Source of the DNA: Patescibacteria group bacterium
GTDB taxonomy: Bacteria > Patescibacteriota > Patescibacteriia > Buchananbacterales > SURF-54
Assembly: GCA_018818885.1 (NCBI GenBank)
Contig: JAHIRB010000007.1
Location: forward strand, 18,357-82,356
Direction of reading: 5' to 3'
Length of the DNA stretch: 64,000 bases
Of this stretch, positions 28,629 through 53,949 are shown piece after piece. Both the position numbers and the translations under genes were made by a program. The number at the start of each line of letters is the position of its first letter. Within the stretch, counting starts at the first letter, position 1. The notes under the pieces were generated by a model. It was given only the letters and a program-made list of their open reading frames with translations. It searched no databases and had not been told where the DNA came from.

Positions 28629-29768
28629 TTAATTATGTCTTTGCCTAGAAACATTGGCTAACAAACCTGCTGCAGCAAAAAGTGTCATAAGCGAGGTTCC
28701 CCCGTAACTAATGAATGGTAATGGTACTCCGGTTAAAGGAGCAAGGCCAATCATGGCAGCAATATTTATAAATGACTGAAAAATTATCCAAGTAATAATT
28801 CCCACCACTAAATATTTTCCAAAATTATCAGGTGCATTACTGGCAAGTTTAAAGCCTTTGATCATCAATATGATAAATAATACTATCAATAATGCTGAAA
28901 AAATAAAACCTATTTCTTCTCCTATTATAGCAAATATTGAATCTCCCGTAACTTCTGGTAAATATGAAAATTTCTGAATTGATTTTCCAAAACCTCGCCC
29001 TAACCAACCACCAGAGCCAACAGCAAGTATCGCTTGATTTAAGTGATAACCAATGCCTTCTGGATCTGTTCCTGGATGCAAAAATACTAGCAAACGATTA
29101 AAACGATATGGGGCCTGAAATATTAGTAAAGTTAATAACGCAGCTCCCATTCCGCCAAAAAATATTAAATGCAAAATTTTAGCACCTGCCACAAAAAATA
29201 TTGTTAAAGCAATAACTACTATTATTGATGCGGTGCCAACATCTGGCTGCAAAACTACTAGTCCTAAAACAACTCCAAGTAGCACAACAAAAGGAACAAA
29301 GCTAATACGAAAATGTTGCAAATCTTGCTTTGTTTTTATGCTAAACCACGCTGCTAAATATATTGTTAAAGTCAATTTTATTATTTCGGAAGGTTGCAAA
29401 GAAAATCCACCAATACTTAGCCAACTTTTTGCATAGCCATATGATGCAGCAAGTCCAGGCACAAAAAGTGCTACTAAAAGTAAAATATTTCCACCCAAAA
29501 TCAATAAACTCCATTTTTTCCAAAAGTGATAATCAACACGATACAAAATATAAAAAAGTACCAACCCAGGTAATACGCCTACAGTAATTTGATGGATCAA
29601 CAAATAATATGTGCTACTATACTTTTGATAGCTAATTACACTCGAGGCAGAAGAAAGCACAACTAGCCCAAATAAAATAATAAATCCTATTATTCCCAAA
29701 ATAAAATAATCTGGTGGTGGGTCCAACAGTGTTTTAGAAAAAATCTTATTTAATATTTTTTTCTTCAT
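28629..29768 (-). CDS. ftsW: peptidoglycan glycosyltransferase FtsW/RodA (SEDS family)
   Basis: 10-TM profile with conserved SEDS periplasmic loop. Confidence 0.85.
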   Translation of the reverse strand: MKKKILNKIFSKTLLDPPPDYFILGIIGFIILFGLVVLSSASSVISYQKYSSTYYLLIHQITVGVLPGLVLFYILYRVDYHFWKKWSLLILGGNILLLVALFVPGLAASYGYAKSWLSIGGFSLQPSEIIKLTLTIYLAAWFSIKTKQDLQHFRISFVPFVVLLGVVLGLVVLQPDVGTASIIVVIALTIFFVAGAKILHLIFFGGMGAALLTLLIFQAPYRFNRLLVFLHPGTDPEGIGYHLNQAILAVGSGGWLGRGFGKSIQKFSYLPEVTGDSIFAIIGEEIGFIFSALLIVLFIILMIKGFKLASNAPDNFGKYLVVGIITWIIFQSFINIAAMIGLAPLTGVPLPFISYGGTSLMTLFAAAGLLANVSRQRHN

Positions 29769-31168
29769 TTCAACTTCTTTACAATATTTACAAATTGATC
29801 ACCACGATCAAATTCGTTGGTGAACAAATTAAAACTTGCACAGGCAGGTGAAAGAAGTACTATATCATTTTTCTTAGCAAGACTATTGGCGATTGATACT
29901 GCCTCAACCATAGAACTAACTTCACTTATTAATGATTTGAATTTTACTTTTTTTAACCTAGGAATTATATTTTTACTACCCTCGCCTTTTAATAAAACTA
30001 ATGCGTGGCAATTTTTCTTAATTTCTTTTGCTAAATTTTCAAATTTTAACTTTTTATCAGTACCTCCAGCAATCAATACAATGTTTTTCTTCTTTGCAAT
30101 TGTTTTTAATGCTGCTATAGTTGCGTCTGGAGTTGTGGAAGCTGTGTCATTATAATACTTGATATTATTGATTTCTTTAATAAATTGTAGCCTACTTTCT
30201 ACTCCACTAAATTTTGAAAGTACTTTTTTGATTTGTAGTTTTGGCACACCTAGTAATTTTGCTACGGTAACAGCCGCTAAAACATTTTCTATGTTATGTT
30301 CTCCCAAAATCTTGACTGCAGAAACTGACGCAACTTTAGTTTCTTTTCCGTCAAGACGAAATACTATGTTTTTATTTTTTACAAAACTACCATTTTCATT
30401 TTTAAATTCTTTTTTCGAAAACCAAAATCTCCTACCGCAGACTAATTTGCCCATTGCTTTGGTGTGTTGATTGTCGCGATTCAAAACAGCTACGTCAAAA
30501 TATCTTTGGTATCTCAATATATTTTCTTTTGCTCTAATATATTCTTTAAATGATTTGTAACGATTAAGGTGGTCTGGCATAACGTTTGTTACAACAGCAA
30601 TATTGGGACAAAGTTTTTGGTCTCCAAGATTTTCTAAATGCCAAGAAGATAGTTCCAGTACTACCTCGTTTTGACCCTTGATTTGATCAATAACATTAAA
30701 CATTGGCACAGTACCAATATTTCCAGCAAGCTTTATCTTTTTAAATTTTTTCTTTAAAAGTTCGTAAATTAAAGTTGTGGTAGTTGATTTTCCTCGAGTG
30801 CCTGTTATGCCTAATATTTTTTGAGGATTATGAAGTTTAAAAAATAATGTTGCTTCGTTTTCTATTTGTACTCCAGCTTTTTGAGCAATTTTTAAAAATT
30901 TAGATTCTTTTGGCACAGCTGGATTTTGTACAATAATATCATTTTGTATAAAATCATTATATTGATGACCACCCAAATGATAAGTTATGTTGAGTGGTTT
31001 TAAACTATTTACTGAATCTATTAATTGATTTTTTGTTTTTAAGTCTGTAACAATAACCTTGGCTCCAGCTTTTACCATCCATCTTGCAACAGAAACACCG
31101 CCTCCGTGCAAACCAAGGCCCATAATTAATACATTCTTTTTTTTAAAATCAGACTTTTGTAGTTGCAT
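29765..31168 (-). CDS. murD: UDP-N-acetylmuramoylalanine--D-glutamate ligase
   Basis: N-terminal GLGLHGGG and GTRGKSTTT motifs. Confidence 0.9.
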   Translation of the reverse strand: MQLQKSDFKKKNVLIMGLGLHGGGVSVARWMVKAGAKVIVTDLKTKNQLIDSVNSLKPLNITYHLGGHQYNDFIQNDIIVQNPAVPKESKFLKIAQKAGVQIENEATLFFKLHNPQKILGITGTRGKSTTTTLIYELLKKKFKKIKLAGNIGTVPMFNVIDQIKGQNEVVLELSSWHLENLGDQKLCPNIAVVTNVMPDHLNRYKSFKEYIRAKENILRYQRYFDVAVLNRDNQHTKAMGKLVCGRRFWFSKKEFKNENGSFVKNKNIVFRLDGKETKVASVSAVKILGEHNIENVLAAVTVAKLLGVPKLQIKKVLSKFSGVESRLQFIKEINNIKYYNDTASTTPDATIAALKTIAKKKNIVLIAGGTDKKLKFENLAKEIKKNCHALVLLKGEGSKNIIPRLKKVKFKSLISEVSSMVEAVSIANSLAKKNDIVLLSPACASFNLFTNEFDRGDQFVNIVKKLK

Positions 31169-31169
31169 A

Positions 31170-31880
31170 TTATTTTATACCTATTATTGCTGCCATACTT
31201 TCAACTTGTCTTGGTTTATCTCGACGATATGAAAAGTATTTATCATTTTGACAATAAGTACACTCATCACTAATTTCGATATTATTTTTAGATACTCCTG
31301 TGCTAACTATTTGATCGTAGGCGTACGACTTTAAATCAATATAGTTAATATCGTTTTTTTTGATTTGATACTTTGCATCGATTTGCTCTAAAACATCATC
31401 CTTAACTTCAAAATGACATTTACCAATTCCTGGGCCAATGGCAACTTTAACGTTATTAATATCTGAATTAAGTTTACTTAATTCATCAAAAAAGTTTGGA
31501 ATTATTCCTTTAGTTAAACTTTTCCAGCCAGAATGCATAACTCCGCAGATTGAATTTTTTGAATCGTAAATAAAAATTGGTAGACAGTCGGCAATTGTTA
31601 CCATCAAAAAAATACCTTTTTTATTTGTAATTAAAGCATCACAATTTTTTACTACTTGATTGTTATTTTCAACAATACAGATGTTTTTCCCGTGTATTAA
31701 ATCTCCTAAAACTATTTGTTTAAAATTAATACCCAATAAGCTAGCAAATTTTTTTTGATTATTGATTACTTCAATTTTGTTATTTGTATCGATTCTTTGA
31801 TTCCCCAATTGCTTTGTAGAAAATCCACAAATTATTTCTGTTTTACTGGCAAAAATTTCAGGGATTATAATGTCTGACAT
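31170..31880 (-). CDS. pgeF: purine nucleoside phosphorylase / peptidoglycan editing factor PgeF (YfiH, DUF152)
   Basis: ADCLP, HSGWK and GPG...C motifs. Confidence 0.75.
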   Translation of the reverse strand: MSDIIIPEIFASKTEIICGFSTKQLGNQRIDTNNKIEVINNQKKFASLLGINFKQIVLGDLIHGKNICIVENNNQVVKNCDALITNKKGIFLMVTIADCLPIFIYDSKNSICGVMHSGWKSLTKGIIPNFFDELSKLNSDINNVKVAIGPGIGKCHFEVKDDVLEQIDAKYQIKKNDINYIDLKSYAYDQIVSTGVSKNNIEISDECTYCQNDKYFSYRRDKPRQVESMAAIIGIK

Positions 31881-31881
31881 T

Positions 31882-32922
31882 TTATGTTCTGTCGATTAAA
31901 AATATAATTAACCCAATTACTGCTGTAACACCAGAAACTACCCAAAGACGCATTACAATTTTTGGTTCGGGCCAACCAATTGCTTGAAGATGATGATGAA
32001 AAGGCGAAGAAAGAAATATTTTCTTTTTTCTAATTGATTTAGAAGCCCACTGTAATAAAACTGATGAAGTTTCCATCACAAAAATAAACCCGATAATAGG
32101 TAACAATAATGATGCATTAGTAAGCATAGCAATCACACCCAAAGTTACCCCTAAAGACATTGCACCAGTATCCCCCATAAAAAATCTTGCGGGGTTAATG
32201 TTGTACCATAAAAATGCTAACAGTGCTCCAATAATTACTCCGCAAAATGTTGCTAAATCAAATCTTCCTTTAGCAAAAGCAATTGACCCATATGCTGCAA
32301 AAGCTACTAAAAGTGTTCCTCCCGCTAAACCATCAAGGCCGTCGGTTAAATTGACTGAATGAGCTGTGGCTATAATGATAAAAATAAAAAATGGAATATA
32401 CCACAATCCAATATCAAAATTTCCAAAAAACGGAATATACAAGGTTGTCCAATCCAATTTAAAGTAAAACCATAAAGCACCTACTGTTGCAATGATAGCG
32501 TAAATTAAAAATCGATGTCTCATCCTAAGACCACCCCCATTATGCCCGACTTTCCAAATATCGATTAAATCATCAATCAAGCCCACAATAGCAGAAGCAA
32601 CTAACGCCCCAAGGGGAAGCAATGTTTCACTTCTAGAAAGAAAATTGAGTTGGGTAAATACTCCGTTAAATATTTGTGATAAAAAATAAAATCCTAAAGC
32701 AAAAACTAAAACTGTTACCCAAATTAAAACACCACCCATCGTAGGTGTGCCTTTTTTACTTTTGTGTAATTTAGAAAATATTGGTGCAGATTTTTCGTCT
32801 CTGATTTGCTTGCCTAATTTAAACTTATACAAAAAATGTGTAAGTAGTGGCGTCCAGAGCATTGTAACGATAAATGCTAAGGTTGTTAGAAAAAATATTT
32901 TTGTGATATAAATGTTTTCCAT
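31882..32922 (-). CDS. mraY: phospho-N-acetylmuramoyl-pentapeptide transferase
   Basis: HSVNLTDGLDGLA motif, 10 TM. Confidence 0.9.
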   Translation of the reverse strand: MENIYITKIFFLTTLAFIVTMLWTPLLTHFLYKFKLGKQIRDEKSAPIFSKLHKSKKGTPTMGGVLIWVTVLVFALGFYFLSQIFNGVFTQLNFLSRSETLLPLGALVASAIVGLIDDLIDIWKVGHNGGGLRMRHRFLIYAIIATVGALWFYFKLDWTTLYIPFFGNFDIGLWYIPFFIFIIIATAHSVNLTDGLDGLAGGTLLVAFAAYGSIAFAKGRFDLATFCGVIIGALLAFLWYNINPARFFMGDTGAMSLGVTLGVIAMLTNASLLLPIIGFIFVMETSSVLLQWASKSIRKKKIFLSSPFHHHLQAIGWPEPKIVMRLWVVSGVTAVIGLIIFLIDRT

Positions 32923-33359: not shown

Positions 33360-35144
33360 TTGTCTATAATGGCACAAATATTACTAATATGTTATAATAT
33401 ATCCACTATGTTAACACCCAAACAACTAAAAAGCATACTTGTTGAGGAAGGTGTGCTTTCAGAAAAAGAGTTAGAACTAAATTTAAAGGAGGCCGAAAAA
33501 GAAGGAGTTTCTTTAGAAGAATATCTTGAAGCAAAAAAACTTGTTTCTCAACATGATATTTATAATGCTGCAGCTAAACACTATAAAGTTGCATTTATTG
33601 AGTTAAAGAATTTGACCATCAGAAAGGACATCTTGTTATTAATTCCAGAACCTATTGCACAAACTCATAAAATTATTGCTTTTGAAAAAAATAATAATAA
33701 ACTTAAAATTGCAGCGCTAGACCCACAAGACTTGGAAATATTTGAATTTTTAAGAAAAAAAACTGGCCTAGAAGTTGAAATTCATTTAACAACACCCCAA
33801 AATCTTAATGACGTTTTAAAACAATACCACAAAGGCCTAAAGGCAGAATTTGAAAAAATAACAGAAAAGAAAGCAACAGAAACAACTGACGAGAAAACAG
33901 GTGATAAGCTAAAAGAATTAGCAGAAGACCTCCCGGTTATTCGAATAGTTGATACATTGCTTGAATACGCAATTATTGAAAACGCCTCTGATATTCATAT
34001 CGAGCCATTAGAAAAAGAAGTTAATGTCCGGTACCGAATTGACGGTATTTTAAGAAATGTGATGACTCTACCTAAATCAGTTCATGCAGGTGTTATAGCT
34101 CGTATTAAAATATTATCTCACTTAAAACTAGACGAACACCGCCTACCTCAAGATGGGAGATTTAAAGTTGTTAACCCAGAATATAAGGTTGCTTTTAGAG
34201 TTTCGATAATGCCAACTTTTGATGGCGAAAAAGCAGTTTTGAGATTGTTGAACGAAAATTCCCAAAAGCTGACTCTAGAGCAACTTGGTTTTCAAAACAA
34301 ACCGCTAGAAATTATTCAAAGAAACATTAAAAAACCTCATGGCATGATTTTAGTTACTGGCCCAACGGGATCAGGAAAAACAACTACTCTGTACACAATT
34401 CTAAACATCTTGAATAGAACAGAAGTAAACATTTGCACTATAGAAGACCCAATCGAATATAGAATGCAACATATTAACCAAAGCCAAGTCAGCCCAAAAA
34501 TTGGTTTTAATTTTGCCACCGGCTTAAGATCTTTCTTAAGGCAAGATCCAGACATTATTATGGTTGGTGAAATTCGTGATACTGAAACTGCAGAAATTGC
34601 TGTTCACGCAGCCATGACAGGCCATCTAGTACTTTCAACACTGCACACAAATGATGCCGTAACCACATTGCCTAGATTAAGTGATATGAACATACCTTCA
34701 TTTTTAGTTGCTTCTACAACCAATATAATTATAGCTCAACGTTTGGTAAGAAAAATCTGCCAAGAATGCGTAGAAAGTTACAATTTAGATAAAAATGCAA
34801 TTAAGGAATTGGAAAAACAAGTAGATTTAGAAAAAATATTTAAAAAATTGGAAAACGAAAAAGAAATACTTCCAGGAAGACAGAAAATTGATAGCTTATT
34901 ATTCTATCGAGGTAAGGGATGTAGTAGATGCAATAAGACAGGGTACAAAGGAAGGATTGGCATCTACGAAGTACTTGAGATAAATGAAGAAATCTCAACT
35001 TTAATACAAAAAAACGCCAAAACTGATAAGTTGCTTGAAGCTGTAGAAAAACAAGGCATGATTACTATTCTAGAAGATGGTTTTATCAAAGCAAAAAATG
35101 GCATTACTACGCTAGAAGAGATACTTCGGGTCACAAAAGAATAA
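33360..35144 (+). CDS. pilB: type IV pilus assembly ATPase PilB (GspE family)
   Basis: Walker A VTGPTGSGKTTTLY, Asp box, His box, C-terminal tetracysteine; ORF-track start is TTG, true start probably ATG at 33369 or 33408. Confidence 0.9.
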   Translation: MSIMAQILLICYNISTMLTPKQLKSILVEEGVLSEKELELNLKEAEKEGVSLEEYLEAKKLVSQHDIYNAAAKHYKVAFIELKNLTIRKDILLLIPEPIAQTHKIIAFEKNNNKLKIAALDPQDLEIFEFLRKKTGLEVEIHLTTPQNLNDVLKQYHKGLKAEFEKITEKKATETTDEKTGDKLKELAEDLPVIRIVDTLLEYAIIENASDIHIEPLEKEVNVRYRIDGILRNVMTLPKSVHAGVIARIKILSHLKLDEHRLPQDGRFKVVNPEYKVAFRVSIMPTFDGEKAVLRLLNENSQKLTLEQLGFQNKPLEIIQRNIKKPHGMILVTGPTGSGKTTTLYTILNILNRTEVNICTIEDPIEYRMQHINQSQVSPKIGFNFATGLRSFLRQDPDIIMVGEIRDTETAEIAVHAAMTGHLVLSTLHTNDAVTTLPRLSDMNIPSFLVASTTNIIIAQRLVRKICQECVESYNLDKNAIKELEKQVDLEKIFKKLENEKEILPGRQKIDSLLFYRGKGCSRCNKTGYKGRIGIYEVLEINEEISTLIQKNAKTDKLLEAVEKQGMITILEDGFIKAKNGITTLEEILRVTKE

Positions 35145-35161
35145 AATTACTTAAAACAAAA

Positions 35162-36244
35162 ATGCAACCTTTATTTGAAAAAATAAAAAAATTTACAATA
35201 AATCTGCAAAGAGTTCCTGTTTCTCAAAAAATATTTTTTGTTCAACAGTTGGGCATTATGATAAAAACCGGCATTTCGCTTTCTGTAGCTTTAAACACTT
35301 TAAGCCGTCAAGCCTCAAATAAAAAATTTAAAACCATACTTTTATCTTTAAAAAGTGAAGTAGAAAAAGGAAATTTACTTTCTAAAGGTTTAGAAAAATA
35401 CTCCCAGGATTTCGGTGAGCTTTTTATTAATATGATAAAAACTGGAGAAACTTCTGGTAAGTTAGAGGACGTCTTAAAACAATTATATATTCAGATGAAA
35501 AAAGATCACGAGATTGTGGGTAAGGTAAAGGGTGCCTTAATCTATCCAGCGATTGTTATTACCATGATGATAGTAATAGGAATTTTAATGATGGTTTACG
35601 TTATCCCAAATATCACATCAATTTTTGAAGAAGTAAACGCTCAAATCCCACTTTTTACTAGAATATTAATATGGTTAAGTAAATTTATTACAGCCAATGG
35701 AATTTTAGTAGCTGCTGTTTCATTAATATCGATAACAATTTTTGTTCGCCTAATAACTTGGGAAAAAGGTAAATTTCAATTTCATAGAATTTTATTAAGG
35801 ACACCGGTTGTTGGAAAAATAATAGTAAAAATAAATTTAGCAAGATTCTGCAGAACACTTAGCTCTTTATTAAAAACAGATATACCTATTGTAAAAACTT
35901 TTGGCATAACTGCAGATGTATTAAGCAATCGCTTATACCGAAAAGCGTTAAATGAGGCTAAGGAACAAATACAAAAAGGGGTTAGTATAGAAAAATCTTT
36001 AAATGTTTACCCTAAACTTTTTCCACCAGTAATTTTGCAAATGATTGCAGTGGGCGAAGACACAGGTTCTTTAGACGACGTATTACAAGAATCAGCAATT
36101 TTTTACGAAGACGAAGTATCCCAAACCATGGATAATTTACCATCTATAATGGAACCAGTTTTAATGGTTATTTTAGGTCTTGGAGTTGCTGCCATGGCAG
36201 TTGCTGTTATTATGCCAATGTACAGCTTAAGCCAAGCAATTTAA
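35162..36244 (+). CDS. pilC: type IV pilus inner-membrane platform protein PilC (GspF family)
   Basis: two T2SSF repeats, 3 TM. Confidence 0.85.
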   Translation: MQPLFEKIKKFTINLQRVPVSQKIFFVQQLGIMIKTGISLSVALNTLSRQASNKKFKTILLSLKSEVEKGNLLSKGLEKYSQDFGELFINMIKTGETSGKLEDVLKQLYIQMKKDHEIVGKVKGALIYPAIVITMMIVIGILMMVYVIPNITSIFEEVNAQIPLFTRILIWLSKFITANGILVAAVSLISITIFVRLITWEKGKFQFHRILLRTPVVGKIIVKINLARFCRTLSSLLKTDIPIVKTFGITADVLSNRLYRKALNEAKEQIQKGVSIEKSLNVYPKLFPPVILQMIAVGEDTGSLDDVLQESAIFYEDEVSQTMDNLPSIMEPVLMVILGLGVAAMAVAVIMPMYSLSQAI

Positions 36245-36245
36245 T

Positions 36246-36362
36246 ATGACCCAGTAGTGATCCCGTAAAATTTAAATTACTATTGGATTATAAAAACATA
36301 AAAAAATTTGGAATAATTAATAAATATAATAAATGCCATTTACGGGACTACTACCGGGTATG
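36246..36362 (+). mobile_element. MITE-like element copy E2 (long-TIR subtype, 118 bp), ATG-bounded, between pilC stop and pilin-like gene start
   Basis: TIRs atgacccagtagtgatcccgtaaaa / tttacgggactactaccgggtatg; AT-rich core; terminal ATG is start codon of downstream gene. Confidence 0.6.
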
Positions 36363-38633
36363 AAAACCAAAAATCAAAAAGGACTATCTTTAATCGAAGT
36401 ATTATTTTCGGTTTTTATTTTGGCTATTTTGAGTATAGGAATTTTTTCTCTGTTCCAAATTGCTTTGAATGTTTTAGCAGAAAATAAAGCCAGAGTTGGT
36501 GCAGTTTCGTTAGCCAACGAAAAAATGGAAATTATCAGAAACTTATCATACGAAAATGTTGGTACAGATGGCGGATGGCCATCAGGAGATCTTGAACAAA
36601 CAGAACTTATTACTAAAAACAATATTGAATATACTGTTAATATAGCTATTAATTACGTTGATGATCTTTTTGATGGTGATTGTGACACTGACTTAGATTG
36701 CAATGATTATAAAGACGTTGAAATCGAAGTGCTGTGGACTGGGCATTTGGGTGTGCGTAACGTGATTATGAGAACAGCAGTTGCGCCACGAGGTTTAGAA
36801 ACGATGACTGGCGGAGTTTTAAGAGTGAGTGTATTTGATGCTAATGGTGATCCTGTGGATAACGCACAAGTCCACTTAGTTAATAATATTATTTCTCCAA
36901 CAATTAATACAAATTTTTATACTAATGATAGTGGTCAGGTAATTATTCCTGATCTTGAAGAATCATTAAACACATACCAACTAGATGTAACAAAGATAGT
37001 AGTCCCAGGGGAGACAGAATACAGTATTGATAGGACTTGTGCTATTGATTCTAATTTTGCAGATTGCACAAACGGTAATGCAGACCCAACCAAACCACAC
37101 GCCTCAGTAATCGAAAGTGAAATTACAGAAATTAGTTTTGCCATTGACCTTGTCTCGACTTTAACCATAAGAACAGTTAATCAAACTACGCCTTTGGCAT
37201 GGATAGTTAATACCGGCGACCTTTCAGAAGATCAAGACAACCCAGCCATTACGGTGTGTGATAGTGGCGAATATATTTTTGGTTGGCGAGATGATGATTA
37301 TGGTATAGATAAAATATATAGCCAAAGATACGACGAATATGGTGAAGTGATTTGGGTAGAAGATAAAGCGATTTCAACGGCTTCGAAACAAAACAATATA
37401 GACTTAGCCGTAGATAATGATTGTAATATTTATGCTACTTGGCAAGATGATAGAGACGATAAAGGTAATGAAGATGTGTATTTTGTTAGTTACGATGACA
37501 ACGGAGATGATCGTTGGGACGGCGAAAAAAAGATAGTCACAGAAGCTGAAAGTTCAGATCAAAGCTGGCCAAAAATCACTCTAAACACTGCTAAAGATAG
37601 AGCTTATATTGCATGGGAAGATGAAAGAAATGATAATGGCGATATCTACATTATAAAATATGATATTTCATCAGAAGAAACTCCACTATCAGTAGTAGCA
37701 GAATTCGATCCAGCAATAAAGGTAAATTCTGATTCAATTGGTTCAGCGCAGGAAAAACCAGTGGTAGCTAACGATACAGATGATAATATTTACGTTGTTT
37801 GGGAAGATGATAGAAATTTTAATTATGATATTTATGCTCAAAAATTAAATAGTGATGGAACCAAGTTGTGGTCTGACACAAAAATAAATTCTGATTCTGG
37901 CGCATCTCAAGAAAATCCAGATATCGCACTTGATTCTTCAGACAATTTGTATGTTGTCTGGCAGGATTTTAGAAGTGATAATGATTATGACATTTATATT
38001 CAAAAATACGATAGCTCTGGCAATAGATTGTGGGCATTAGAAGATATTAAAGTAAATTCTGATTCTTCTGACGCATCTCAAGAAAATCCTGTAATAGCAG
38101 TATATGACCCCGGAACACCAGCTGATATTAGAATTTATGTCGTCTGGCAAGATTACAGAAACAGTAACTCTGATATATACATGCAAATTTTTGATTACAA
38201 TGGTAATAAACAATTAGATTATGATCTCAATATTGGAAATGGTAGTGCAGACCAAGAAAATCCAGATATAATAATTTCTCCGATCACTGGGTTTCCAACA
38301 ATAACCTGGCAAGACAACACCAACGGCGATTGGGATATAATAGCAGCGCAATACGGAGACACAATAGAAAACGGTGGTAACGTTGCAAATGTGGCTTTTG
38401 ACATGTCTGGCTCAAAAACTATTGGTGAAGATATAAACGAAGATCCTATCTATAAATATAACAATATTACCCTACAAACTGACGGTACTGGGACTCTAAT
38501 ACTTACAAATATGGAATGGGATACATACACAATTAATCTTGATCCTGACCGCACACTTCTAATGTCAGAACCCCCTATCCCCTTCTTATTAAATCCCAAT
38601 ACTTCGTTAACCGTATTTCTAAATGTTGAATAG
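36360..38633 (+). CDS. giant type IV pilin-like protein: prepilin N-terminus + seven ~45-aa YVVWxDxR...DIYxQK repeats (predicted beta-propeller)
   Basis: leader MKTKNQKG then LSLIEVLFSVFILAIL (class III signal); tandem sequence repeats visible in translation. Confidence 0.7.
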   Translation: MKTKNQKGLSLIEVLFSVFILAILSIGIFSLFQIALNVLAENKARVGAVSLANEKMEIIRNLSYENVGTDGGWPSGDLEQTELITKNNIEYTVNIAINYVDDLFDGDCDTDLDCNDYKDVEIEVLWTGHLGVRNVIMRTAVAPRGLETMTGGVLRVSVFDANGDPVDNAQVHLVNNIISPTINTNFYTNDSGQVIIPDLEESLNTYQLDVTKIVVPGETEYSIDRTCAIDSNFADCTNGNADPTKPHASVIESEITEISFAIDLVSTLTIRTVNQTTPLAWIVNTGDLSEDQDNPAITVCDSGEYIFGWRDDDYGIDKIYSQRYDEYGEVIWVEDKAISTASKQNNIDLAVDNDCNIYATWQDDRDDKGNEDVYFVSYDDNGDDRWDGEKKIVTEAESSDQSWPKITLNTAKDRAYIAWEDERNDNGDIYIIKYDISSEETPLSVVAEFDPAIKVNSDSIGSAQEKPVVANDTDDNIYVVWEDDRNFNYDIYAQKLNSDGTKLWSDTKINSDSGASQENPDIALDSSDNLYVVWQDFRSDNDYDIYIQKYDSSGNRLWALEDIKVNSDSSDASQENPVIAVYDPGTPADIRIYVVWQDYRNSNSDIYMQIFDYNGNKQLDYDLNIGNGSADQENPDIIISPITGFPTITWQDNTNGDWDIIAAQYGDTIENGGNVANVAFDMSGSKTIGEDINEDPIYKYNNITLQTDGTGTLILTNMEWDTYTINLDPDRTLLMSEPPIPFLLNPNTSLTVFLNVE

Positions 38634-39237
38634 AAATAAAACTGGATACACATTGCTTGAAATAATATTTGCCATTTCAATATTTACGCTGGCAATAACA
38701 ATGGTTTCTGCCTATATTGTAACAGGTTATAAAACCAGTAGATTTGCAGAGGAGCAAAATGAATCTATTGAGCACGCACGTAAAGGTATCGAAACAATGA
38801 TCGAGGAAATACGAGAAGCAAGCCCAGCCGAGAATGGAGATTTTGCCATAGCAGAAGCAGATGAACAAAATTTTGTATTTTATAGTGATATTGACGTAGA
38901 TCAACAAACCGAAAAAGTAAGGTACTTTTTAGAAGGATCAGACCTTAAAAAAGGCGTTACACAACCTACAGGTTTCCCAGTAACTTATCCAACAGAAAAC
39001 GAAGTGATAACAATCCTTTCTATGTATGTTAGAAATGATACTGATCCAATTTTTTATTTCTACGATGCTACTTGGGCTGGCACAGATACAAATGATTACC
39101 TTACAACACCAGCTTCTCCTAATCAAGTTAATATTATCAGACTAAACTTAGAAATTAATATTAATCCAGCCATTGCACCTAATCCATTTATTTTAGAATC
39201 ATACGTCAACGTCAGAAACCTTAAAGAAAATCTTTAA
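38623..39237 (+). CDS. type IV pilin / pseudopilin (prepilin-type N-terminal methylation domain)
   Basis: MLNRNKTG then YTLLEIIFAISIFTLAI. Confidence 0.7.
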   Translation: MLNRNKTGYTLLEIIFAISIFTLAITMVSAYIVTGYKTSRFAEEQNESIEHARKGIETMIEEIREASPAENGDFAIAEADEQNFVFYSDIDVDQQTEKVRYFLEGSDLKKGVTQPTGFPVTYPTENEVITILSMYVRNDTDPIFYFYDATWAGTDTNDYLTTPASPNQVNIIRLNLEININPAIAPNPFILESYVNVRNLKENL

Positions 39238-39254
39238 TCAAACAACAAATAATA

Positions 39255-40736
39255 ATGTACAAGTCCCAAAAAAATAAAAACAATAATTGGAAATTGGAAA
39301 TTGGAAATTGGAAATTTCAACAGAAGGGTGCTATACTTATAATGACAATGACCTTTACAGTTGTTTTTTTAATTATTGCTGGAGGTCTTATCGCCCTAAT
39401 AAATCAACAACAAAGATTAAATAGAATTAGAAAAGCTAAAGCACAAGCACTACATCTTGCAGAAGCTGGTGTAAATTATTACCGCTGGCATCTTGCGCAT
39501 GATCCCGATGATTATACCGATGGTACCGCTACTACCTGCAACGAAGAAACGAATCCATGTATTCATGATTATTTGCAAGGTGATACTATGGGTCAATTCT
39601 CATTAACCATTACGCCACCTTCCACTGGTTCAACAGTCGTAACAATTAAATCCACTGGCTGGGTAAATGATTTCGAAGATTATAAAAGAAGAGTTGTCGC
39701 AAAATACGGACTACCATCTTGGGCACGCTATGCTGTAGTTGCTAATGCAGATATGCGTTTTGGTGAAGGTACTATTGTCCATGGTCCATTACATTCTAAT
39801 GGTGGAGTTCGATTTGATGGTATTGCTTATAACGAAATTACTTCTGCCCAGGAAAGCTATAACGATCCAGATCATAGTGGTGGTAATGAGTTCGGAGTTC
39901 ATACACACGTAGACCCTACGGATCCTCTACCGCCCACAACCGTACCCGCTAGATTAGATGTATTTGCAGGAGGAAGAAGTTTTCCCACCCCTTCAATTGA
40001 TTTTAACGCCATTACGGTCGATCTAGCTATGCTAGAAGATGCAGCAGATGATGACGGTCTACATATCAAAAAATCTAATCAAGAAGGCTGGCACATTATA
40101 CTATCTCCAAATGGCACATTAGATTATAGAAAAGTTGATTCATTTGAATACTGTGGTAGTACTCCAACCGGAGGAGATTTAGATTATCAAGGTAATTGGA
40201 CAACCGATGAACCATTTCCCAACAATGGCATAATCTTTGTTTCAGATCATGTCTGGATTGATGGGAGTATAGATGGACACAGACTAACTATTGTAGCTGC
40301 AGAAGATCCACTAGCTTCTGGTGATGCTGATATTTGGATAAATACAAATTTAACATATACAAATTACAACGGAACTGATGCTATTGGCCTCATAGCGCAA
40401 AATGACATTAATATTGGTTTATATAGTGAAGATATTTTAAGAATTGATGGTGCACTTATTGCACAAAATGGACGAGTCGGTCGTTATCATTACTCTTCTT
40501 CGTGCGATCCAATTTATTACGACAGAGATACAATTACAGTTTTTGGTGCGATTGCGACAAATCAAAGATATGGATTTAAGTGGGTTTATGGAGACGGAAC
40601 CAAGGCATCAGGATATACAACCAGAAACCTAGATTTTGACGGTAATTTAACCTATGCTCCCCCACCTCTATTTCCCTCTACTGACACTTACGATTTTATT
40701 TCTTGGGAAGAGGTCTTAATAAACGAAACTTATTAA
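39255..40736 (+). CDS. PilX-like minor pilin / pilus-associated protein
   Basis: QKGAILIMTMTFTVVFLIIAGGL...AEAGVNYY resembles PilX_N domain; 5-prime coding end contains heptamer tract. Confidence 0.5.
   Translation: MYKSQKNKNNNWKLEIGNWKFQQKGAILIMTMTFTVVFLIIAGGLIALINQQQRLNRIRKAKAQALHLAEAGVNYYRWHLAHDPDDYTDGTATTCNEETNPCIHDYLQGDTMGQFSLTITPPSTGSTVVTIKSTGWVNDFEDYKRRVVAKYGLPSWARYAVVANADMRFGEGTIVHGPLHSNGGVRFDGIAYNEITSAQESYNDPDHSGGNEFGVHTHVDPTDPLPPTTVPARLDVFAGGRSFPTPSIDFNAITVDLAMLEDAADDDGLHIKKSNQEGWHIILSPNGTLDYRKVDSFEYCGSTPTGGDLDYQGNWTTDEPFPNNGIIFVSDHVWIDGSIDGHRLTIVAAEDPLASGDADIWINTNLTYTNYNGTDAIGLIAQNDINIGLYSEDILRIDGALIAQNGRVGRYHYSSSCDPIYYDRDTITVFGAIATNQRYGFKWVYGDGTKASGYTTRNLDFDGNLTYAPPPLFPSTDTYDFISWEEVLINETY
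39284..39313. repeat. heptamer microsatellite (aaattgg x4) in 5-prime coding end of PilX-like gene
   Basis: direct inspection; unit length not multiple of 3. Confidence 0.75.
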
Positions 40737-40742
40737 CAAATA

Positions 40743-41798
40743 ATGTTTTCTCCTAACACAACTGCATTTGGTCTAGATATTTCTGACTTTGCAATAAGAC
40801 TAGTTAATCTAAGAAAGACTAGATCAAGTGTTAGCATTGAATCATTTAACGAACTGAAAGTGCCTGCAGGCTATATTGTTGATGGTGAAATCAAGGATGA
40901 AGAAAACGTAACAAAATTACTCAATAAATTACTACTGACTGCTCAAGGTAAAAAATTATTAAAAACTGAAGTTGTTTCTGTGCTACCGGAAACAAAAACC
41001 TTTATTAAAATAATCACTGTTAAAAAAACTGAAAAAAAAGAGCTACCCAAAGCTATCAAGTTGGAACTAAAAAAACATATACCAATTAATATCGAGGAAA
41101 TCTACTTGGATTGGCAAGTAATTTCTGAAAATGAAAAAACTATGAATGTATTAGCTGGTATTGCCCCTAAAGTAATTGTAGATTCATACCTAAATATTCT
41201 AAGAAAAGTTAATTTAATACCACTGGTCTTAGAAATTGAAGCTGCTGCAATTTCGCGTGCCTTAATTGCTGGTGACGATAAAGCTAAGATAATAATTGAT
41301 ATAGGAGCAGCACGAACCGGTTTAATTGTTTATGTCCATAACACGATCGTGCTTACTGTTAGCTTACCTATATCAGGAGAAAAAGTAACACAAGAAATTT
41401 CACAAACATTAAATATTGATTACCAGAAAGCAGAGAAAGCAAAATATGTCTGTGGACTAGATAAAACAAGATGTAAAGGAGCATTAAGGAAAATTCTTTT
41501 TAATTCTATGGATAATCTAGTCTTTGAAATAGATAAGGCAGTTGAATTTTACACAACCCACTTTCCACAAAGTGAAAAAATATCTCAAATTTATCTATGC
41601 GGCGGTGGAGCGTATCTAAAAAAAATTGACAAATATTTATCTCATCGCATAAAAATGGAAGTGATAACTGGCGACCCGCTTAGAACAATCAAAAAAGATA
41701 AACTAAAAGAAATAAAATTTCCTGTGAATCGTTCTCTTTCTTACACAACAGCTATCGGTCTTGCCTTACGTGGAGTTGATAAAAATAATTTATTATGA
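40743..41798 (+). CDS. pilM: type IV pilus assembly protein PilM (actin-like ATPase fold)
   Basis: FGLDISDFAIRLV N-terminus, length 351 aa, position before PilN/O-like genes. Confidence 0.75.
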   Translation: MFSPNTTAFGLDISDFAIRLVNLRKTRSSVSIESFNELKVPAGYIVDGEIKDEENVTKLLNKLLLTAQGKKLLKTEVVSVLPETKTFIKIITVKKTEKKELPKAIKLELKKHIPINIEEIYLDWQVISENEKTMNVLAGIAPKVIVDSYLNILRKVNLIPLVLEIEAAAISRALIAGDDKAKIIIDIGAARTGLIVYVHNTIVLTVSLPISGEKVTQEISQTLNIDYQKAEKAKYVCGLDKTRCKGALRKILFNSMDNLVFEIDKAVEFYTTHFPQSEKISQIYLCGGGAYLKKIDKYLSHRIKMEVITGDPLRTIKKDKLKEIKFPVNRSLSYTTAIGLALRGVDKNNLL

Positions 41799-42334
41799 TT
41801 ACTCTTAATTTAATATCACCAGTACAAAAAAAAGAATTGAAGTTGATTCGTGCTTTTTTGATATTAAAAAACGTAATAATATATTTACTACTTTTCTTAA
41901 TCCTAACAGCAATTATTCTTCTTTTCTCTAAGCTTATTCTTCAAAATAATTTTAATCGTGTTATTGCAGAATTTAATCTTAATAATCAAACAGGGACTAT
42001 TTTCACCCAAGACATCAAACAATTTAACCAAAAAATAAAAGTTATAGAATCTGTACAAAACAGTTACATCTCCTGGTCCGAACCAATTGTTTATTGGTTA
42101 AATTTAATGCCAAAAAACGTTGTCCTTAACTCATTAATTATTAATAAAGAAAAACAAATTATACAAATTTCTGGCAGAGCTTTGAATAGAGCTGCACTAC
42201 TTGAGATGGAACAAGCATTAATGCAAGCAGAATGCATACAAAATTTATGTATGGAAGAAATTGATATTCCAATTTCACAAAAAATATTAAAAGAAAATAT
42301 TGATTTTCAAGTATCTGCAAAATTAATCATTTAA
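41795..42334 (+). CDS. PilN-like bitopic membrane protein
   Basis: single N-terminal TM plus coiled coil, 4-nt overlap with pilM. Confidence 0.5.
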   Translation: MITLNLISPVQKKELKLIRAFLILKNVIIYLLLFLILTAIILLFSKLILQNNFNRVIAEFNLNNQTGTIFTQDIKQFNQKIKVIESVQNSYISWSEPIVYWLNLMPKNVVLNSLIINKEKQIIQISGRALNRAALLEMEQALMQAECIQNLCMEEIDIPISQKILKENIDFQVSAKLII

Positions 42335-42339
42335 AAATA

Positions 42340-42867
42340 ATGAATATCGTAAAAAAATTTATAATATATTTAGTGATTGTAATCATTATTTATGTGTCAA
42401 TAATATTTTTTGTTATTATCCCAACAACAAGCGACATTCAGGCAATCAGTGACCAAATATATAACGAAAGAATTGACCTTGAAAAAAGATACAAAAAGGG
42501 TCAGTTGATAAAACAACTAGTTGAAGATTTTAGAAAAATTAAACCACAACAAGATCGATTAGAATTAATATTTGTTAAAGAAAGTGAAATTCTTAATTTT
42601 GTAACTAGCTTAGAAAATCTAGCTAATAATAATAATATTGATTTAAGCATAAAGCTTAAAGAAATCGAAAACACTAATAACATAGCTAGCATGCCTTTAG
42701 ACTTAACTATTGGAGGAAGCTATCAGAATGTCATTGCATATTTAAATGATATTGAAAAACAAGATTATTATTTTAGTATAGATAGTATAAGAATTAATAG
42801 TGCCGGGCAAACTGCTGGAATTATCAACTTATTTGTGCATGGCGATATTTTTATTGAATTAGAATAA
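42340..42867 (+). CDS. PilO-like bitopic membrane protein
   Basis: single TM, coiled coil, position. Confidence 0.45.
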   Translation: MNIVKKFIIYLVIVIIIYVSIIFFVIIPTTSDIQAISDQIYNERIDLEKRYKKGQLIKQLVEDFRKIKPQQDRLELIFVKESEILNFVTSLENLANNNNIDLSIKLKEIENTNNIASMPLDLTIGGSYQNVIAYLNDIEKQDYYFSIDSIRINSAGQTAGIINLFVHGDIFIELE

Positions 42868-42872
42868 TAACT

Positions 42873-43202
42873 ATGAAGCTTAATATAAAAAAAATAAAAG
42901 TCGGACTCAACATTAACATTATATACAAGCTAATTTATCCAGTAATGTTGATCGTGATACTTGTTGGAGTAGGTTTTTTAATGATATTTCTTTATAATGA
43001 CATTTACAAAACAATCACACATGCGGAGGAAGTATCAATACTTAGAACTGAGGTTGCACCAGAAGTTTTTCAAATAAAAACTTTCGAAGGTGTTATGGAA
43101 AATCTAGACCAAAAAACTACAAAAGCCTCAATTGATAAATCATTAATAAAAAATGTTTTTACCATTCCTCCTGTCGAAATACTAAAACCAGAAATACAAT
43201 AA
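42873..43202 (+). CDS. hypothetical membrane protein (pilus cluster)
   Basis: 109 aa, one TM. Confidence 0.35.
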   Translation: MKLNIKKIKVGLNINIIYKLIYPVMLIVILVGVGFLMIFLYNDIYKTITHAEEVSILRTEVAPEVFQIKTFEGVMENLDQKTTKASIDKSLIKNVFTIPPVEILKPEIQ

Positions 43203-45547: not shown

Positions 45548-46369
45548 CTATGGCCTCTCAACAATTATCATTACTTTTTTGCCTGAGTTCATTTCGTTAT
45601 CGCTCATTCCACCTTCTGCTAATCCATGGTTCCAATTATGTATAGCAGCTAGTAACACATCGTATTTATATTTAAAACCTTCGCCATTTCTGGTTCCAGG
45701 ATCATTAGTTATGAATTCATCTTCATCAAAACCTCTAATCATAAGCATATGAAAGATTGGACCAGGATAATGAAAGTTCGGATTACCTAAAAGCCGTCCT
45801 GCTGCTGGAACAAGAATTAATTTTTCTTGTTGTAAAATTTCTTTAATATTTTTTACAGTTACTTCTGTTGATATTGTTGAATCAAAACCAAAATATTCTT
45901 TAAGAATGGTTTTTGTTTCTAGCGCAGTTAAATCTACATTATATTCTCTTTCTTCTTCCCATGCTACAAGTGCTTGAATTTCACGTTCCATAATAATTGC
46001 GTCTAGCGATTCGCCATTGTAATGCTTTACTGCCATTATCATGGAGGCCTCTTCACAAGCTTCATCATGCAAATAATCCCAAATTGCAAATGGTGCTTGA
46101 GGAACAAAAGTAACATTTTGATCAAAATTATCCAAAATATTTTCTCTTTTTATGTCTTCGATTTGATCTATCTCTTTAATTATTACTACTTCTTTTTTAT
46201 CCTCTATTTCATTTTGCATATCAGTAGGTTCTGTGATTGCATCGTCTATGTCACCTTGAGAGTTTACCACTATATTTTGCTGAATTACATCAATAGAAAG
46301 ATGACTGGCTGCAGAACTTGCACAACCAGTCAAAAATAACAATGCTATGAGCAACAGGATTTTTTTCAT
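45548..46369 (-). CDS. lipoprotein, putative C39-like (papain-fold) peptidase domain
   Basis: lipobox LTGC; conserved Cys/His/Asn-containing segments. Confidence 0.45.
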   Translation of the reverse strand: MKKILLLIALLFLTGCASSAASHLSIDVIQQNIVVNSQGDIDDAITEPTDMQNEIEDKKEVVIIKEIDQIEDIKRENILDNFDQNVTFVPQAPFAIWDYLHDEACEEASMIMAVKHYNGESLDAIIMEREIQALVAWEEEREYNVDLTALETKTILKEYFGFDSTISTEVTVKNIKEILQQEKLILVPAAGRLLGNPNFHYPGPIFHMLMIRGFDEDEFITNDPGTRNGEGFKYKYDVLLAAIHNWNHGLAEGGMSDNEMNSGKKVMIIVERP

Positions 46370-52587: not shown

Positions 52588-53949
52588 ATGAAACTTTGGC
52601 GAAGAAGAGCAGTATATATATCTTTTTTTGTTATATTTTTTATTGGTGCTCCAATACTGATATTTTATACTGCTGGATACAAATTTAATTTTAAGAATTT
52701 TAAGGTTGAAAAAACCGGTATTTTAGTTTTGGAAACAAAGCCAAAAGATGCGAAAATTTATATTAATGATAATCTGGTTGAATACACTACTCCTGCACAG
52801 ATTAATAATTTTCTACCAAATTTTTACCACATTAAGCTTCAAAAAGAAGGTTATCACTCATGGCAGAAAACCTTAAAGTTAGAAAGCAACTTAACTACAT
52901 TTGCTAAAGGAATAATTTTATTTAAACAATCTCTGCCGATCTTAAAGACTTCAGGTGATATTGTTGATATAAAGTACTTGTCTGGTAAGGATAGTGTCTT
53001 GTACTTACTTAAAGACCAAGAAAGATATGAACTCAGGCTATTAAATTTAAATTCAGAAAACGATCAACTTGTTTATAAATTTTTAGCTGGAGAAAATATT
53101 AATTTTAAAAATATTAAGACATCGTCTAATCAAAACAAAATTCTAGTAAATATTAATACTTCCATACCCAAAATTTTAGTAATTAACATAAATACATTAG
53201 AAAGTTCTGATTTATTTGAATTAACTAAAACCAGTTACGAACTAATTCGTTGGAGTGATACTGGTGATGGTGTCATCTATGGCTACAATGCTGGTATACT
53301 TTATCAGATTGACTTAGTTACAAATATTGTAAGCAGAATACTTGCAGCACAAATCAATGATTTTAAAATTGAAAACTTGTATGCTTATTACATCTCACCC
53401 GATAATTTGATCACAAAGATTAATACCATAAATTCAGATGAGATAGAATCTGTGAAATTACCAGCTAATAGTAATTTTTCGTTTGATCTTGAGCCATCTG
53501 ATTATCTTTCTTTAATTGACAAACAAAGCGGTGAATTAATAATATTAGATGATAACGTTTTTGAAACCGAAGATAATGTTTTAGATTCAATTATCATGCA
53601 GGCAGATACTTTTAATACGGTTTGGACCAAAGAAAGTAAAAACTTACTACATTATACTGATTTTGAACTTTGGGTATATAATTTTGATAGTTCAGAAAAT
53701 ACACTGCTGAATCGTATGAGCAAGGATGTTTTAAATGCTTTCTGGTATACTGATAACAAATACGTAGTATATCAAACAAATAATGAAATAAAAATAACGG
53801 AACTGGATTCAAGGGATAAAAGAAATGATACTGTGTTGACAAAGATGGAAAATATTTATGATAGTTTTTTAAGTGATGACGGCGAAAAAGTATATTTTTC
53901 TGGAGTGTTGGGAAATCAACAAGGGATATTTGAACTGCAGATACGTTAA
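52588..53949 (+). CDS. PEGA-domain membrane-anchored protein
   Basis: TM then KIYINDNLVEYTTPAQI...KEGYHSW PEGA-like segment. Confidence 0.5.
   Translation: MKLWRRRAVYISFFVIFFIGAPILIFYTAGYKFNFKNFKVEKTGILVLETKPKDAKIYINDNLVEYTTPAQINNFLPNFYHIKLQKEGYHSWQKTLKLESNLTTFAKGIILFKQSLPILKTSGDIVDIKYLSGKDSVLYLLKDQERYELRLLNLNSENDQLVYKFLAGENINFKNIKTSSNQNKILVNINTSIPKILVININTLESSDLFELTKTSYELIRWSDTGDGVIYGYNAGILYQIDLVTNIVSRILAAQINDFKIENLYAYYISPDNLITKINTINSDEIESVKLPANSNFSFDLEPSDYLSLIDKQSGELIILDDNVFETEDNVLDSIIMQADTFNTVWTKESKNLLHYTDFELWVYNFDSSENTLLNRMSKDVLNAFWYTDNKYVVYQTNNEIKITELDSRDKRNDTVLTKMENIYDSFLSDDGEKVYFSGVLGNQQGIFELQIR

Follow-up and report, generated by a model that had tools for sequence, protein, structure and literature searches.

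A predicted pilin-fused, SBBP-like beta-propeller in a type IV pilus operon of Patescibacteria

Modular pilins, in which a class III pilin module is fused to domains that are not specific to pili, have been catalogued by Raynaud et al. [quoted passage not shown] Their prototypes are PilB and PilC of Streptococcus sanguinis, which bear a vWA module and a glycan-binding, concanavalin A-like lectin module, respectively (PMC8179133). A minor pilin with a seven-bladed beta-propeller is known from the CPR as well—PilX2 of Nanosynbacter lyticus TM7x (Saccharibacteria), a proposed tip adhesin that is required for efficient attachment to the host: when it is deleted, binding drops from 10.6% to 4.6% of hosts, with the filament retained (PMC11623550). 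In the type IVa pili of Pseudomonas and Neisseria, the propeller proteins PilY1/PilC are associated with calcium-related biology and have a role in adhesion (PMC8179133, PMC11623550). Modular pilins, including those of CPR bacteria, and a propeller-bearing pilin of Saccharibacteria are therefore already known, and the protein described here is an uncharacterised architecture among them. It is the 757-aa product of a gene at positions 36360..38633 (+) of a 64-kb stretch of a contig from an ultra-small Patescibacteria bacterium (JAHIRB010000007.1), called the window below, and we refer to it as the giant pilin. With a probability of roughly 55%, we read it as a modular minor pilin of GspI/PilV/ComGE-like type whose propeller, probably stabilised by cations, would serve in binding at the tip of the pilus.

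The giant pilin gene is a single open reading frame (ORF) ending at 38633 (+) with in-frame ATG codons at 36333 (766 aa, the form found at JGI, Logan, and ENA) and at 36360 (757 aa, the form deposited at NCBI as MBU1164070.1). Both starts give a prepilin leader, of 17 and 8 residues, respectively, and the family alignment favors the shorter one. This class III leader, MKTKNQKG (36360..36383, +), is short and basic with the cleavage-site glycine as its last residue, and the N-terminus MKTKNQKG/LSLIEVLFSVFIL (the slash marking the cleavage site) continues into a hydrophobic segment with a glutamate at position +5. The sequence MKTKNQKG/LSLIEVLFSVFILAILSIGIF agrees with the class III signature of a short hydrophilic leader with a final Gly and then a hydrophobic stretch of about 20 residues with Glu at +5. 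Pfam N_methyl (PF07963) matches residues 4–29 with 26.4 bits compared to a gathering score of 21.2, and Gly8, Leu11, and Glu13 (Glu5 of the mature protein) each reach at least 90% conservation over 73 aligned full-length homologs. This alignment also served as input to AlphaFold2; family models were scanned over 47 members. This leader motif, the predicted alpha1 helix and sheet, and the surrounding assembly genes are the features of a type IV pilin.

In the AlphaFold2 model (mean predicted local distance difference test score, pLDDT, 90.5; predicted TM-score 0.77), the giant pilin is predicted to consist of four modules, i.e., a pilin domain, a CarboxypepD_reg-like beta-sandwich, a seven-bladed beta-propeller, and a second beta-sandwich. 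The pilin module (residues 9–148; 36384..36803, +) combines a hydrophobic alpha1 helix with Glu5 (E13) and a four-stranded sheet, modeled as a helix at residues 11–60 and strands at 81–86, 89–100, 117–128, and 131–141 (pLDDT 81–94). Across the family, this domain matches the models of ComGE (41 of 47 members), PilV (31/47), and GspI (16/47) at E<0.01, mainly through its N-terminal helix; the giant pilin itself reaches about 21 bits on NCBIfam models of these types compared to cut-offs of 49–52 and thus stays below threshold. These matches, all of them sub-threshold, make the pilin domain a putative GspI/PilV/ComGE-like one. The first beta-sandwich (residues 149–276; 36804..37187, +) is supported by PF13620 and blastp and belongs to the conserved stalk; the PF13620 match is below the cut-off in the giant pilin (E 9.6e-5) and is found in all 47 members, with a best E-value of 2.8e-12. 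The second one (residues 675–757, 83 aa; 38382..38630, +) is supported by blastp and by the domain architecture that hidden Markov models (HMMs) gave over 86 related loci, and it directly follows sandwich 1 in relatives without the propeller. With a pilin module, a CarboxypepD_reg-like sandwich, and an SBBP-like propeller in one chain, the giant pilin falls under the definition of modular pilins by Raynaud et al. (2021).

The propeller spans residues 283–674 (about 390 aa; 37206..38381, +) and is supported by AlphaFold2, Foldseek, TIGR04275, and repeat statistics. Its seven repeats are anchored at W309, W361, W419, W481, W534, W596, and W650 with a period of 52–62 aa, and pairs of repeat units score 38–137 compared to 26 ± 6 (maximum 62) for shuffled units. 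Tandem Repeats Finder detected no DNA-level tandem repeat over the propeller region, suggesting that the blades are old and diverged. In the structural model, residues 291–674 are organized into seven strand sets, each with three long strands plus a shorter one and with pLDDT mostly above 90, which would form a propeller with blades at about residues 291–337, 344–391, 401–454, 464–508, 517–564, 574–624, and 632–674. The top Foldseek matches in the PDB are all six- to seven-bladed propellers, led by seven-bladed CylK (7ron and 7fh6–8; E 1.9e-12 to 1e-10, probability 1.00) and followed by sialidases, GH145/PL42 rhamnose-glucuronate lyases, PL24 ulvan lyases, and GH43 enzymes. A search of PDB sequences with the family profile likewise recovers CylK (E 6e-10), whose residues ~250–605 align and share the signature G..D.Y..KyD..G...W. 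At the level of sequence families, TIGR04275 (the NCBIfam model of SBBP-type repeats) hits the giant pilin with E 5.5e-13 and 48.4 bits, below its cut-off of 85, and matches all 47 members at E<0.01, and Pfam SBBP (PF06739) is found in 7 of the 47 with no match in the giant pilin, which points to a divergent SBBP-like propeller that routine annotation does not detect. An initial annotation of the window had proposed a prepilin leader with cleavage/methylation motif, seven repeats of about 45 aa over the C-terminal 500 aa, and a propeller fold. The leader is borne out by the above-cut-off N_methyl match and the conserved cleavage site, the repeat number by the unit scores and TIGR04275, and the fold by the structure prediction and the CylK match; the repeat length was set too short, and the repeats end at about residue 674, before the 83-aa beta-sandwich, having begun at about residue 283.

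The propeller is very acidic with a net charge of -57, and its positions with at least 90% conservation are repeat-motif positions throughout, with no unique catalytic cluster among them. A regular expression for the Asp-box (S-x-D-x-G-x-T-W) found no match in the giant pilin. Conservation per domain is uniform at about 40% identity, indicating that the head does not evolve faster than the stalk within the family of propeller pilins. In CylK, the C-terminal domain adopts a seven-bladed propeller fold and has Ca2+ sites at all blade junctions (PMC8916777), and the acidity and the repeat-restricted conservation of the giant pilin's propeller fit a cation-stabilised SBBP scaffold used in binding.

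Homologs show that the propeller is one of several forms found at this place of the operon. Searches with the whole protein gave 337 homologs, more than 90 of them full-length (~730–770 aa, 30–60% identity), and the full-length ones come from metagenome-assembled genomes (MAGs) labeled as Parcubacteria, Falkowbacteria, or Buchananbacteria, in agreement with the CPR affiliation that the initial annotation had assumed. Identical synteny is seen in a Buchananbacteria contig (45% identity) and in other contigs. Outside pilins, the propeller module is found by itself in proteins that are secreted or on the surface and have type IX secretion system, FlgD-Ig, dockerin, or PPC tails. Approached via the ComZ-like protein described below, the place 3' of pilC and 5' of the gene for the ~205-aa pilin (the slot) is occupied by pilins of 597, 733, and 1443 aa that, by blastp, share residues 1–276 of the giant pilin at 34–44% identity. 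Residues 675–751 of the giant pilin align by blastp to residues 280–353 of the slot proteins of loci L005 and L007; the two flanking sandwiches are thus contiguous in relatives without propeller, and the propeller is an insertion between two conserved sandwiches.

We extended this comparison to a set of 87 related loci, of which 80 were obtained by scanning species-representative genomes with a 10-sequence query and 7 had been collected beforehand. Nearly all of these loci keep the order pilB–pilC–slot pilin–~205-aa pilin–~490-aa ComZ-like protein–pilMNO. Domain HMMs were applied to 86 usable loci, i.e., the 87 plus the window, minus one duplicate and one truncated locus. The pilin-plus-sandwich stalk is present in the slot protein of every one of them, and a propeller lies between sandwich 1 and sandwich 2 in 26, the window included. 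The basal form of ~440–455 aa, found in Moranbacteria, Woesebacteria, Chisholmbacteria, Paceibacterota, and others, consists of the pilin domain, sandwich 1, sandwich 2, and usually one further sandwich. A search with the stalk (residues 1–276) gave 863 representative clusters (E <= 1e-10), whose lengths peak near 445, 590, and 745 aa and above 1000 aa. Larger forms carry additional inserts, which add 210 to 420 aa within the pilin domain in L025–L027. In L025 (7334–7969) and L026 (5735–6991), these inserts are concanavalin A-like lectins (Laminin_G_3, E 2e-13 and 1e-19, above threshold) that come in addition to the propeller. Inserts of about 330 aa in L004 (9402–10385) and about 650 aa in L029 (2351–4327) and L030 lie inside the propeller, which they split after about blade 1–2 or about blade 3–4, and have no Pfam match. 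In a neighbor-joining tree of the stalk, the propeller forms make up one clade of 23 tips, including the window, and a separate clade of 3 tips; a single origin is not supported, with 0 of 20 bootstraps giving a single bipartition. Duplications were seen as well: L047 and L055 encode an additional large pilin (773–783 aa) together with another ~205-aa pilin and another ComZ-like protein, and in L005 pilM-N-O is present twice, with the second set immediately downstream. The typical Patescibacteria operon also appears under the titles "uncultured Gammaproteobacteria", "Bdellovibrionales", and "Thiotrichaceae" (L018, L019, L024, L027, L031, L045, and others), probably on mislabeled or mis-binned MAG contigs.

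The operon of the window runs in the order pilB, pilC, giant pilin, 204-aa pilin, 493-aa protein, pilM, pilN, pilO, and a 109-aa ORF. As the initial annotation had it, the giant pilin directly follows the genes of a PilB-type assembly ATPase (33360..35144, +; Pfam T2SSE E 3.7e-134, plus MshEN) and a PilC-type platform protein (35162..36244, +; Pfam T2SSF E 9.9e-55). The "conventional pilin" reported downstream is indeed a pilin by its N_methyl match (22.3 bits compared to a cut-off of 21.2) and leader MLNRNKTG/YTLLE, albeit a 204-aa minor pilin and not a conventional major one. Its gene (38623..39237, +) overlaps the end of the giant pilin gene by 11 nt; it has weak matches to models of ComGF, GspJ, and GspI type, and a ~205-aa pilin is always found 3' of the slot pilin in related loci. 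The "PilX-like" protein that follows (493 aa; 39255..40736, +) does have a pilin fold but resembles ComZ in structure. Its N-terminal helix is hydrophobic and lacks Glu5, a beta-solenoid is predicted as well, and its AlphaFold2 model (pLDDT 88.6) gave ComZ (6qvi_B) as the sole significant fold match in the PDB (E 1.4e-10), at 13% identity and with a TM-score of 0.26 that is low because of domain orientation. The NCBIfam subtype models match the 204-aa and ComZ-like proteins weakly and below threshold. Thermus thermophilus ComZ has a beta-solenoid inserted into a pilin fold and has been argued to cap the competence pilus at the GspK position together with PilA2 (PMC6561018). Homologs of the 493-aa protein number at least 2855 at about 50% identity and are far more widely spread than the propeller pilin; they are barely annotated, with a few named "PilX N-terminal domain".

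Similar to PilB and PilC of S. sanguinis, the giant pilin combines a class III pilin module with non-pilus domains in a minor pilin encoded in a pilus operon and with a proposed location at the tip, and the lectin of its relatives in L025 and L026 belongs to the module class of S. sanguinis PilC (PMC8179133). Unlike in these prototypes, its head is an SBBP-like propeller that is inserted between sandwiches and not appended via a short linker. With PilX2 it shares the origin from a CPR genome, the nature as a minor pilin, and the seven blades. However, PilX2 is described as having an RCC1-type propeller and no predicted PilD signal peptide, which sets it apart from the SBBP-type giant pilin with its canonical leader and Glu5, and it occupies the X position whereas the giant pilin, with its propeller inserted between two sandwiches, occupies the first (GspI/PilV-like) pilin position; no RCC1 family was among the Pfam results for the giant pilin at E<=1. 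PilY1/PilC proteins are comparable as propeller proteins linked to the minor-pilin tip complex, a location that we infer for the giant pilin. PilY1 is, however, a Sec-exported non-pilin that docks via its C-terminal propeller and has a variable, adhesive N-terminal part, whereas the propeller of the giant pilin is covalently part of a pilin, and the absence of any PilY1/PilC-type family from the Pfam results at E<=1 places it outside the PilY1 family. CylK (7RON, 7FH6) is the best match in both sequence and fold with its seven blades and repeat signature. Nonetheless, its N-terminal Ca2+-binding beta-roll is replaced by the pilin domain and sandwich in the giant pilin, which is encoded in a pilus operon and not in the context of natural-product biosynthesis. 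Assignments as a CylK-type alkylating enzyme and as a sialidase/BNR enzyme were considered and rejected, the former because the propeller alone aligns and the beta-roll domain that supplies the catalytic Arg105 at the interface of the domains is absent (PMC8916777), and the latter because there is no Asp-box, the conserved residues are those of the repeat motif, and the fold similarity comes with 8–12% identity. Beyond the single protein, the operon is similar to gspI-J-K and comGE-GF-GG in that small pilins precede a cap at the K position, and the 493-aa protein is like ComZ in its pilin fold with an inserted beta-solenoid and lacks Glu5.

On this basis, we propose that the 8-residue leader would be cleaved and that the small GspI/PilV/ComGE-like pilin domain would anchor the protein in the pilus core, from which the beta-sandwich stalk would project to carry the very acidic SBBP-type propeller. 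The giant pilin, the ~205-aa pilin, and the ComZ-like protein, to which the fold match to ComZ assigns the GspK position, may form a GspI-J-K-like priming complex that ends up at the tip, given that the steric argument made for ComZ excludes a bulky head from the filament shaft (PMC6561018). No secretin gene is present in the pilus operon, so that no outer channel would restrict the size of the head, and as CPR cells lack a secretin that would have to be crossed, even a bulky head may be transported to the tip. There, the propeller would act as a non-enzymatic, probably cation-stabilised module that binds a ligand on the host cell or another surface, most plausibly a glycan. That the conserved positions are all those of the repeat motif, that there is no Asp-box, and that the charge is -57 argue against an enzyme and against DNA binding. 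Together, the lectin modules in relatives, the occurrence of the propeller in other surface proteins, and the genetics of PilX2 speak most for adhesion, probably to glycans, and it is from these that we infer this function of the propeller. The propeller is missing from most lineages, suggesting that the pilus has its core role in something else and carries the propeller as an accessory; the propeller would then be an optional add-on, and the core function of the pilus would be independent of it.

Several observations weigh against an adhesive tip pilin. The subtypes assigned to all three pilins depend on sub-threshold N-terminal matches; neither a major pilin nor PilD nor PilT is encoded within the 64-kb window, in which pilin regular expressions gave just the two known pilins; no hypervariable or specially conserved face of the propeller emerged from per-loop entropy with faces assigned from strand topology; and its conservation could be purely structural. 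Furthermore, most structural neighbors of the propeller are enzymes (CylK, sialidases, and polysaccharide lyases), as would suit a pilus-borne glycosidase or polysaccharide lyase that remodels the host surface on contact. The matches to sialidases, GH145/PL42, PL24, and GH43 that follow CylK and the faint GH43 and BNR_4 Pfam matches in some homologs point the same way, but an enzyme seems unlikely to us given the lack of a canonical Asp-box and of a catalytic cluster outside the repeat motif, the 8–16% identity to the matched enzymes, and the dependence of CylK catalysis on Arg105 of an N-terminal beta-roll domain (PMC8916777) that the giant pilin does not have. The same even conservation, restricted to fold-determining repeat positions, would also suit a propeller with a structural or regulatory task within the tip or priming complex, comparable to the C-terminal propeller of PilY1, that would control assembly or retraction, perhaps via Ca2+, and have no external ligand. 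The domain is strongly acidic, its relative in CylK bears Ca2+ at the blade junctions, and the propeller of PilY1 is a carrier that docks on minor pilins (PMC8179133). Yet the ~445-aa form, which has no propeller, predominates among Patescibacteria that share this operon and indicates that the propeller is dispensable for assembly, its covalent fusion makes it unnecessary for docking, and lectin modules co-occur in relatives; we therefore find such a structural or regulatory role rather doubtful.

Two further alternatives concern the pilus as such. Giant pilin might not be part of a filament and could instead be anchored in the membrane via its pilin helix, displayed on the surface or as a component of a short pseudopilus, in line with the missing major pilin, PilT, and PilD and with the argument that bulky pilins cannot occupy the filament shaft (PMC6561018). 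We regard this as quite improbable because the gene lies strictly between pilC and two pilin-fold genes of a pilBC...pilMNO operon in many lineages and because Glu5 and N_methyl, both features of filament assembly, are conserved. Alternatively, the operon could encode a competence pilus for DNA uptake in which the giant pilin helps to capture DNA. Its neighbor resembles ComZ, which binds DNA at the tip of the Thermus pilus (PMC6561018), ComGE is the best family-wide match of the pilin domain, and com genes and natural competence are widespread in the CPR (PMC10633639). A propeller with a net charge of -57 is unfavorable for DNA binding, though, and in S. epibionticum the type IV pilus genes are critical while comEC is dispensable (PMC10633639), which means that the essential role of the pilus there is not competence. 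DNA capture by the giant pilin is thus very unlikely in our eyes, and an adhesive propeller would be compatible with a pilus that, taken in its entirety, serves in DNA uptake. Beyond our preferred reading of a binding propeller on a modular minor pilin, a more far-reaching version can be suggested tentatively, with a rather low probability. The slot would then be a host-range cassette of swappable heads on a common stalk—SBBP propeller, concanavalin A-like lectin, or large unassigned inserts, beside the ComZ-like cap—and the propeller a Ca2+-dependent multivalent lectin for glycans of the host cell wall. If so, the type of head would predict the host or ligand, and a single tip complex would couple host capture to the acquisition of DNA or nutrients.

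The remaining genes of the operon encode PilM (40743–41798, +; Pfam PilM_2 E 9e-48), PilN (41795–42334, +; Pfam PilN E 1.9e-3, below cut-off), PilO (42340–42867, +; Pfam PilO E 1.7e-5), and a 109-aa protein (42873..43202, +) with an N-terminal hydrophobic segment and no Pfam match, which might be a PilP-like component and whose orthologs end the operon in many related loci. Promoter and terminator scans performed at chance level and are uninformative on the operon boundaries. Upstream, a dcw cluster on the opposite strand (mraY, a Cu-oxidase_4 gene, murD, and ftsW; 28629–32922, -) is the divergent neighbor of the operon start at 33360 (+), and this juxtaposition is kept in L001, L003, and L004. 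Near the operon, the window encodes a Peptidase_C39_2 protein of 273 aa (45548–46369, -) with homologs in the neighborhoods of L001, L002, and L004, so that its linkage to the pilus operon may be conserved. Two other large proteins were noticed. An ORF of 745 aa (2249–4486, +) has no Pfam family at E<=1e-5, a hydrophobic segment in the middle of the protein, and a repeat-like C-terminal region, and a membrane-anchored PEGA-domain protein of 453 aa (52588–53949, +) has a long C-terminal part that is uncharacterised; in L007, the corresponding place is taken by a PEGA protein with faint beta-propeller matches.

Current annotation overlooks both the propeller and its ComZ-like neighbor, with proteins of this kind listed as "prepilin-type" (in full for MBU1164070.1, [quoted passage not shown]) or as "carboxypeptidase regulatory-like domain-containing protein". 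How Patescibacteria recognize and hold their hosts is known mainly from a few cultivated Saccharibacteria, and the propeller pilin is a concrete candidate for host recognition in uncultivated lineages similar to Parcubacteria, Falkowbacteria, and Buchananbacteria. With its about 390 aa, the propeller of this pilus subunit is predicted to be well folded and expressible. Natural variants without propeller, with a split propeller, or with added lectins make it feasible to screen for ligands and to compare head types with hosts, and the cassette-like variation of the slot is a second source of interest in this family.

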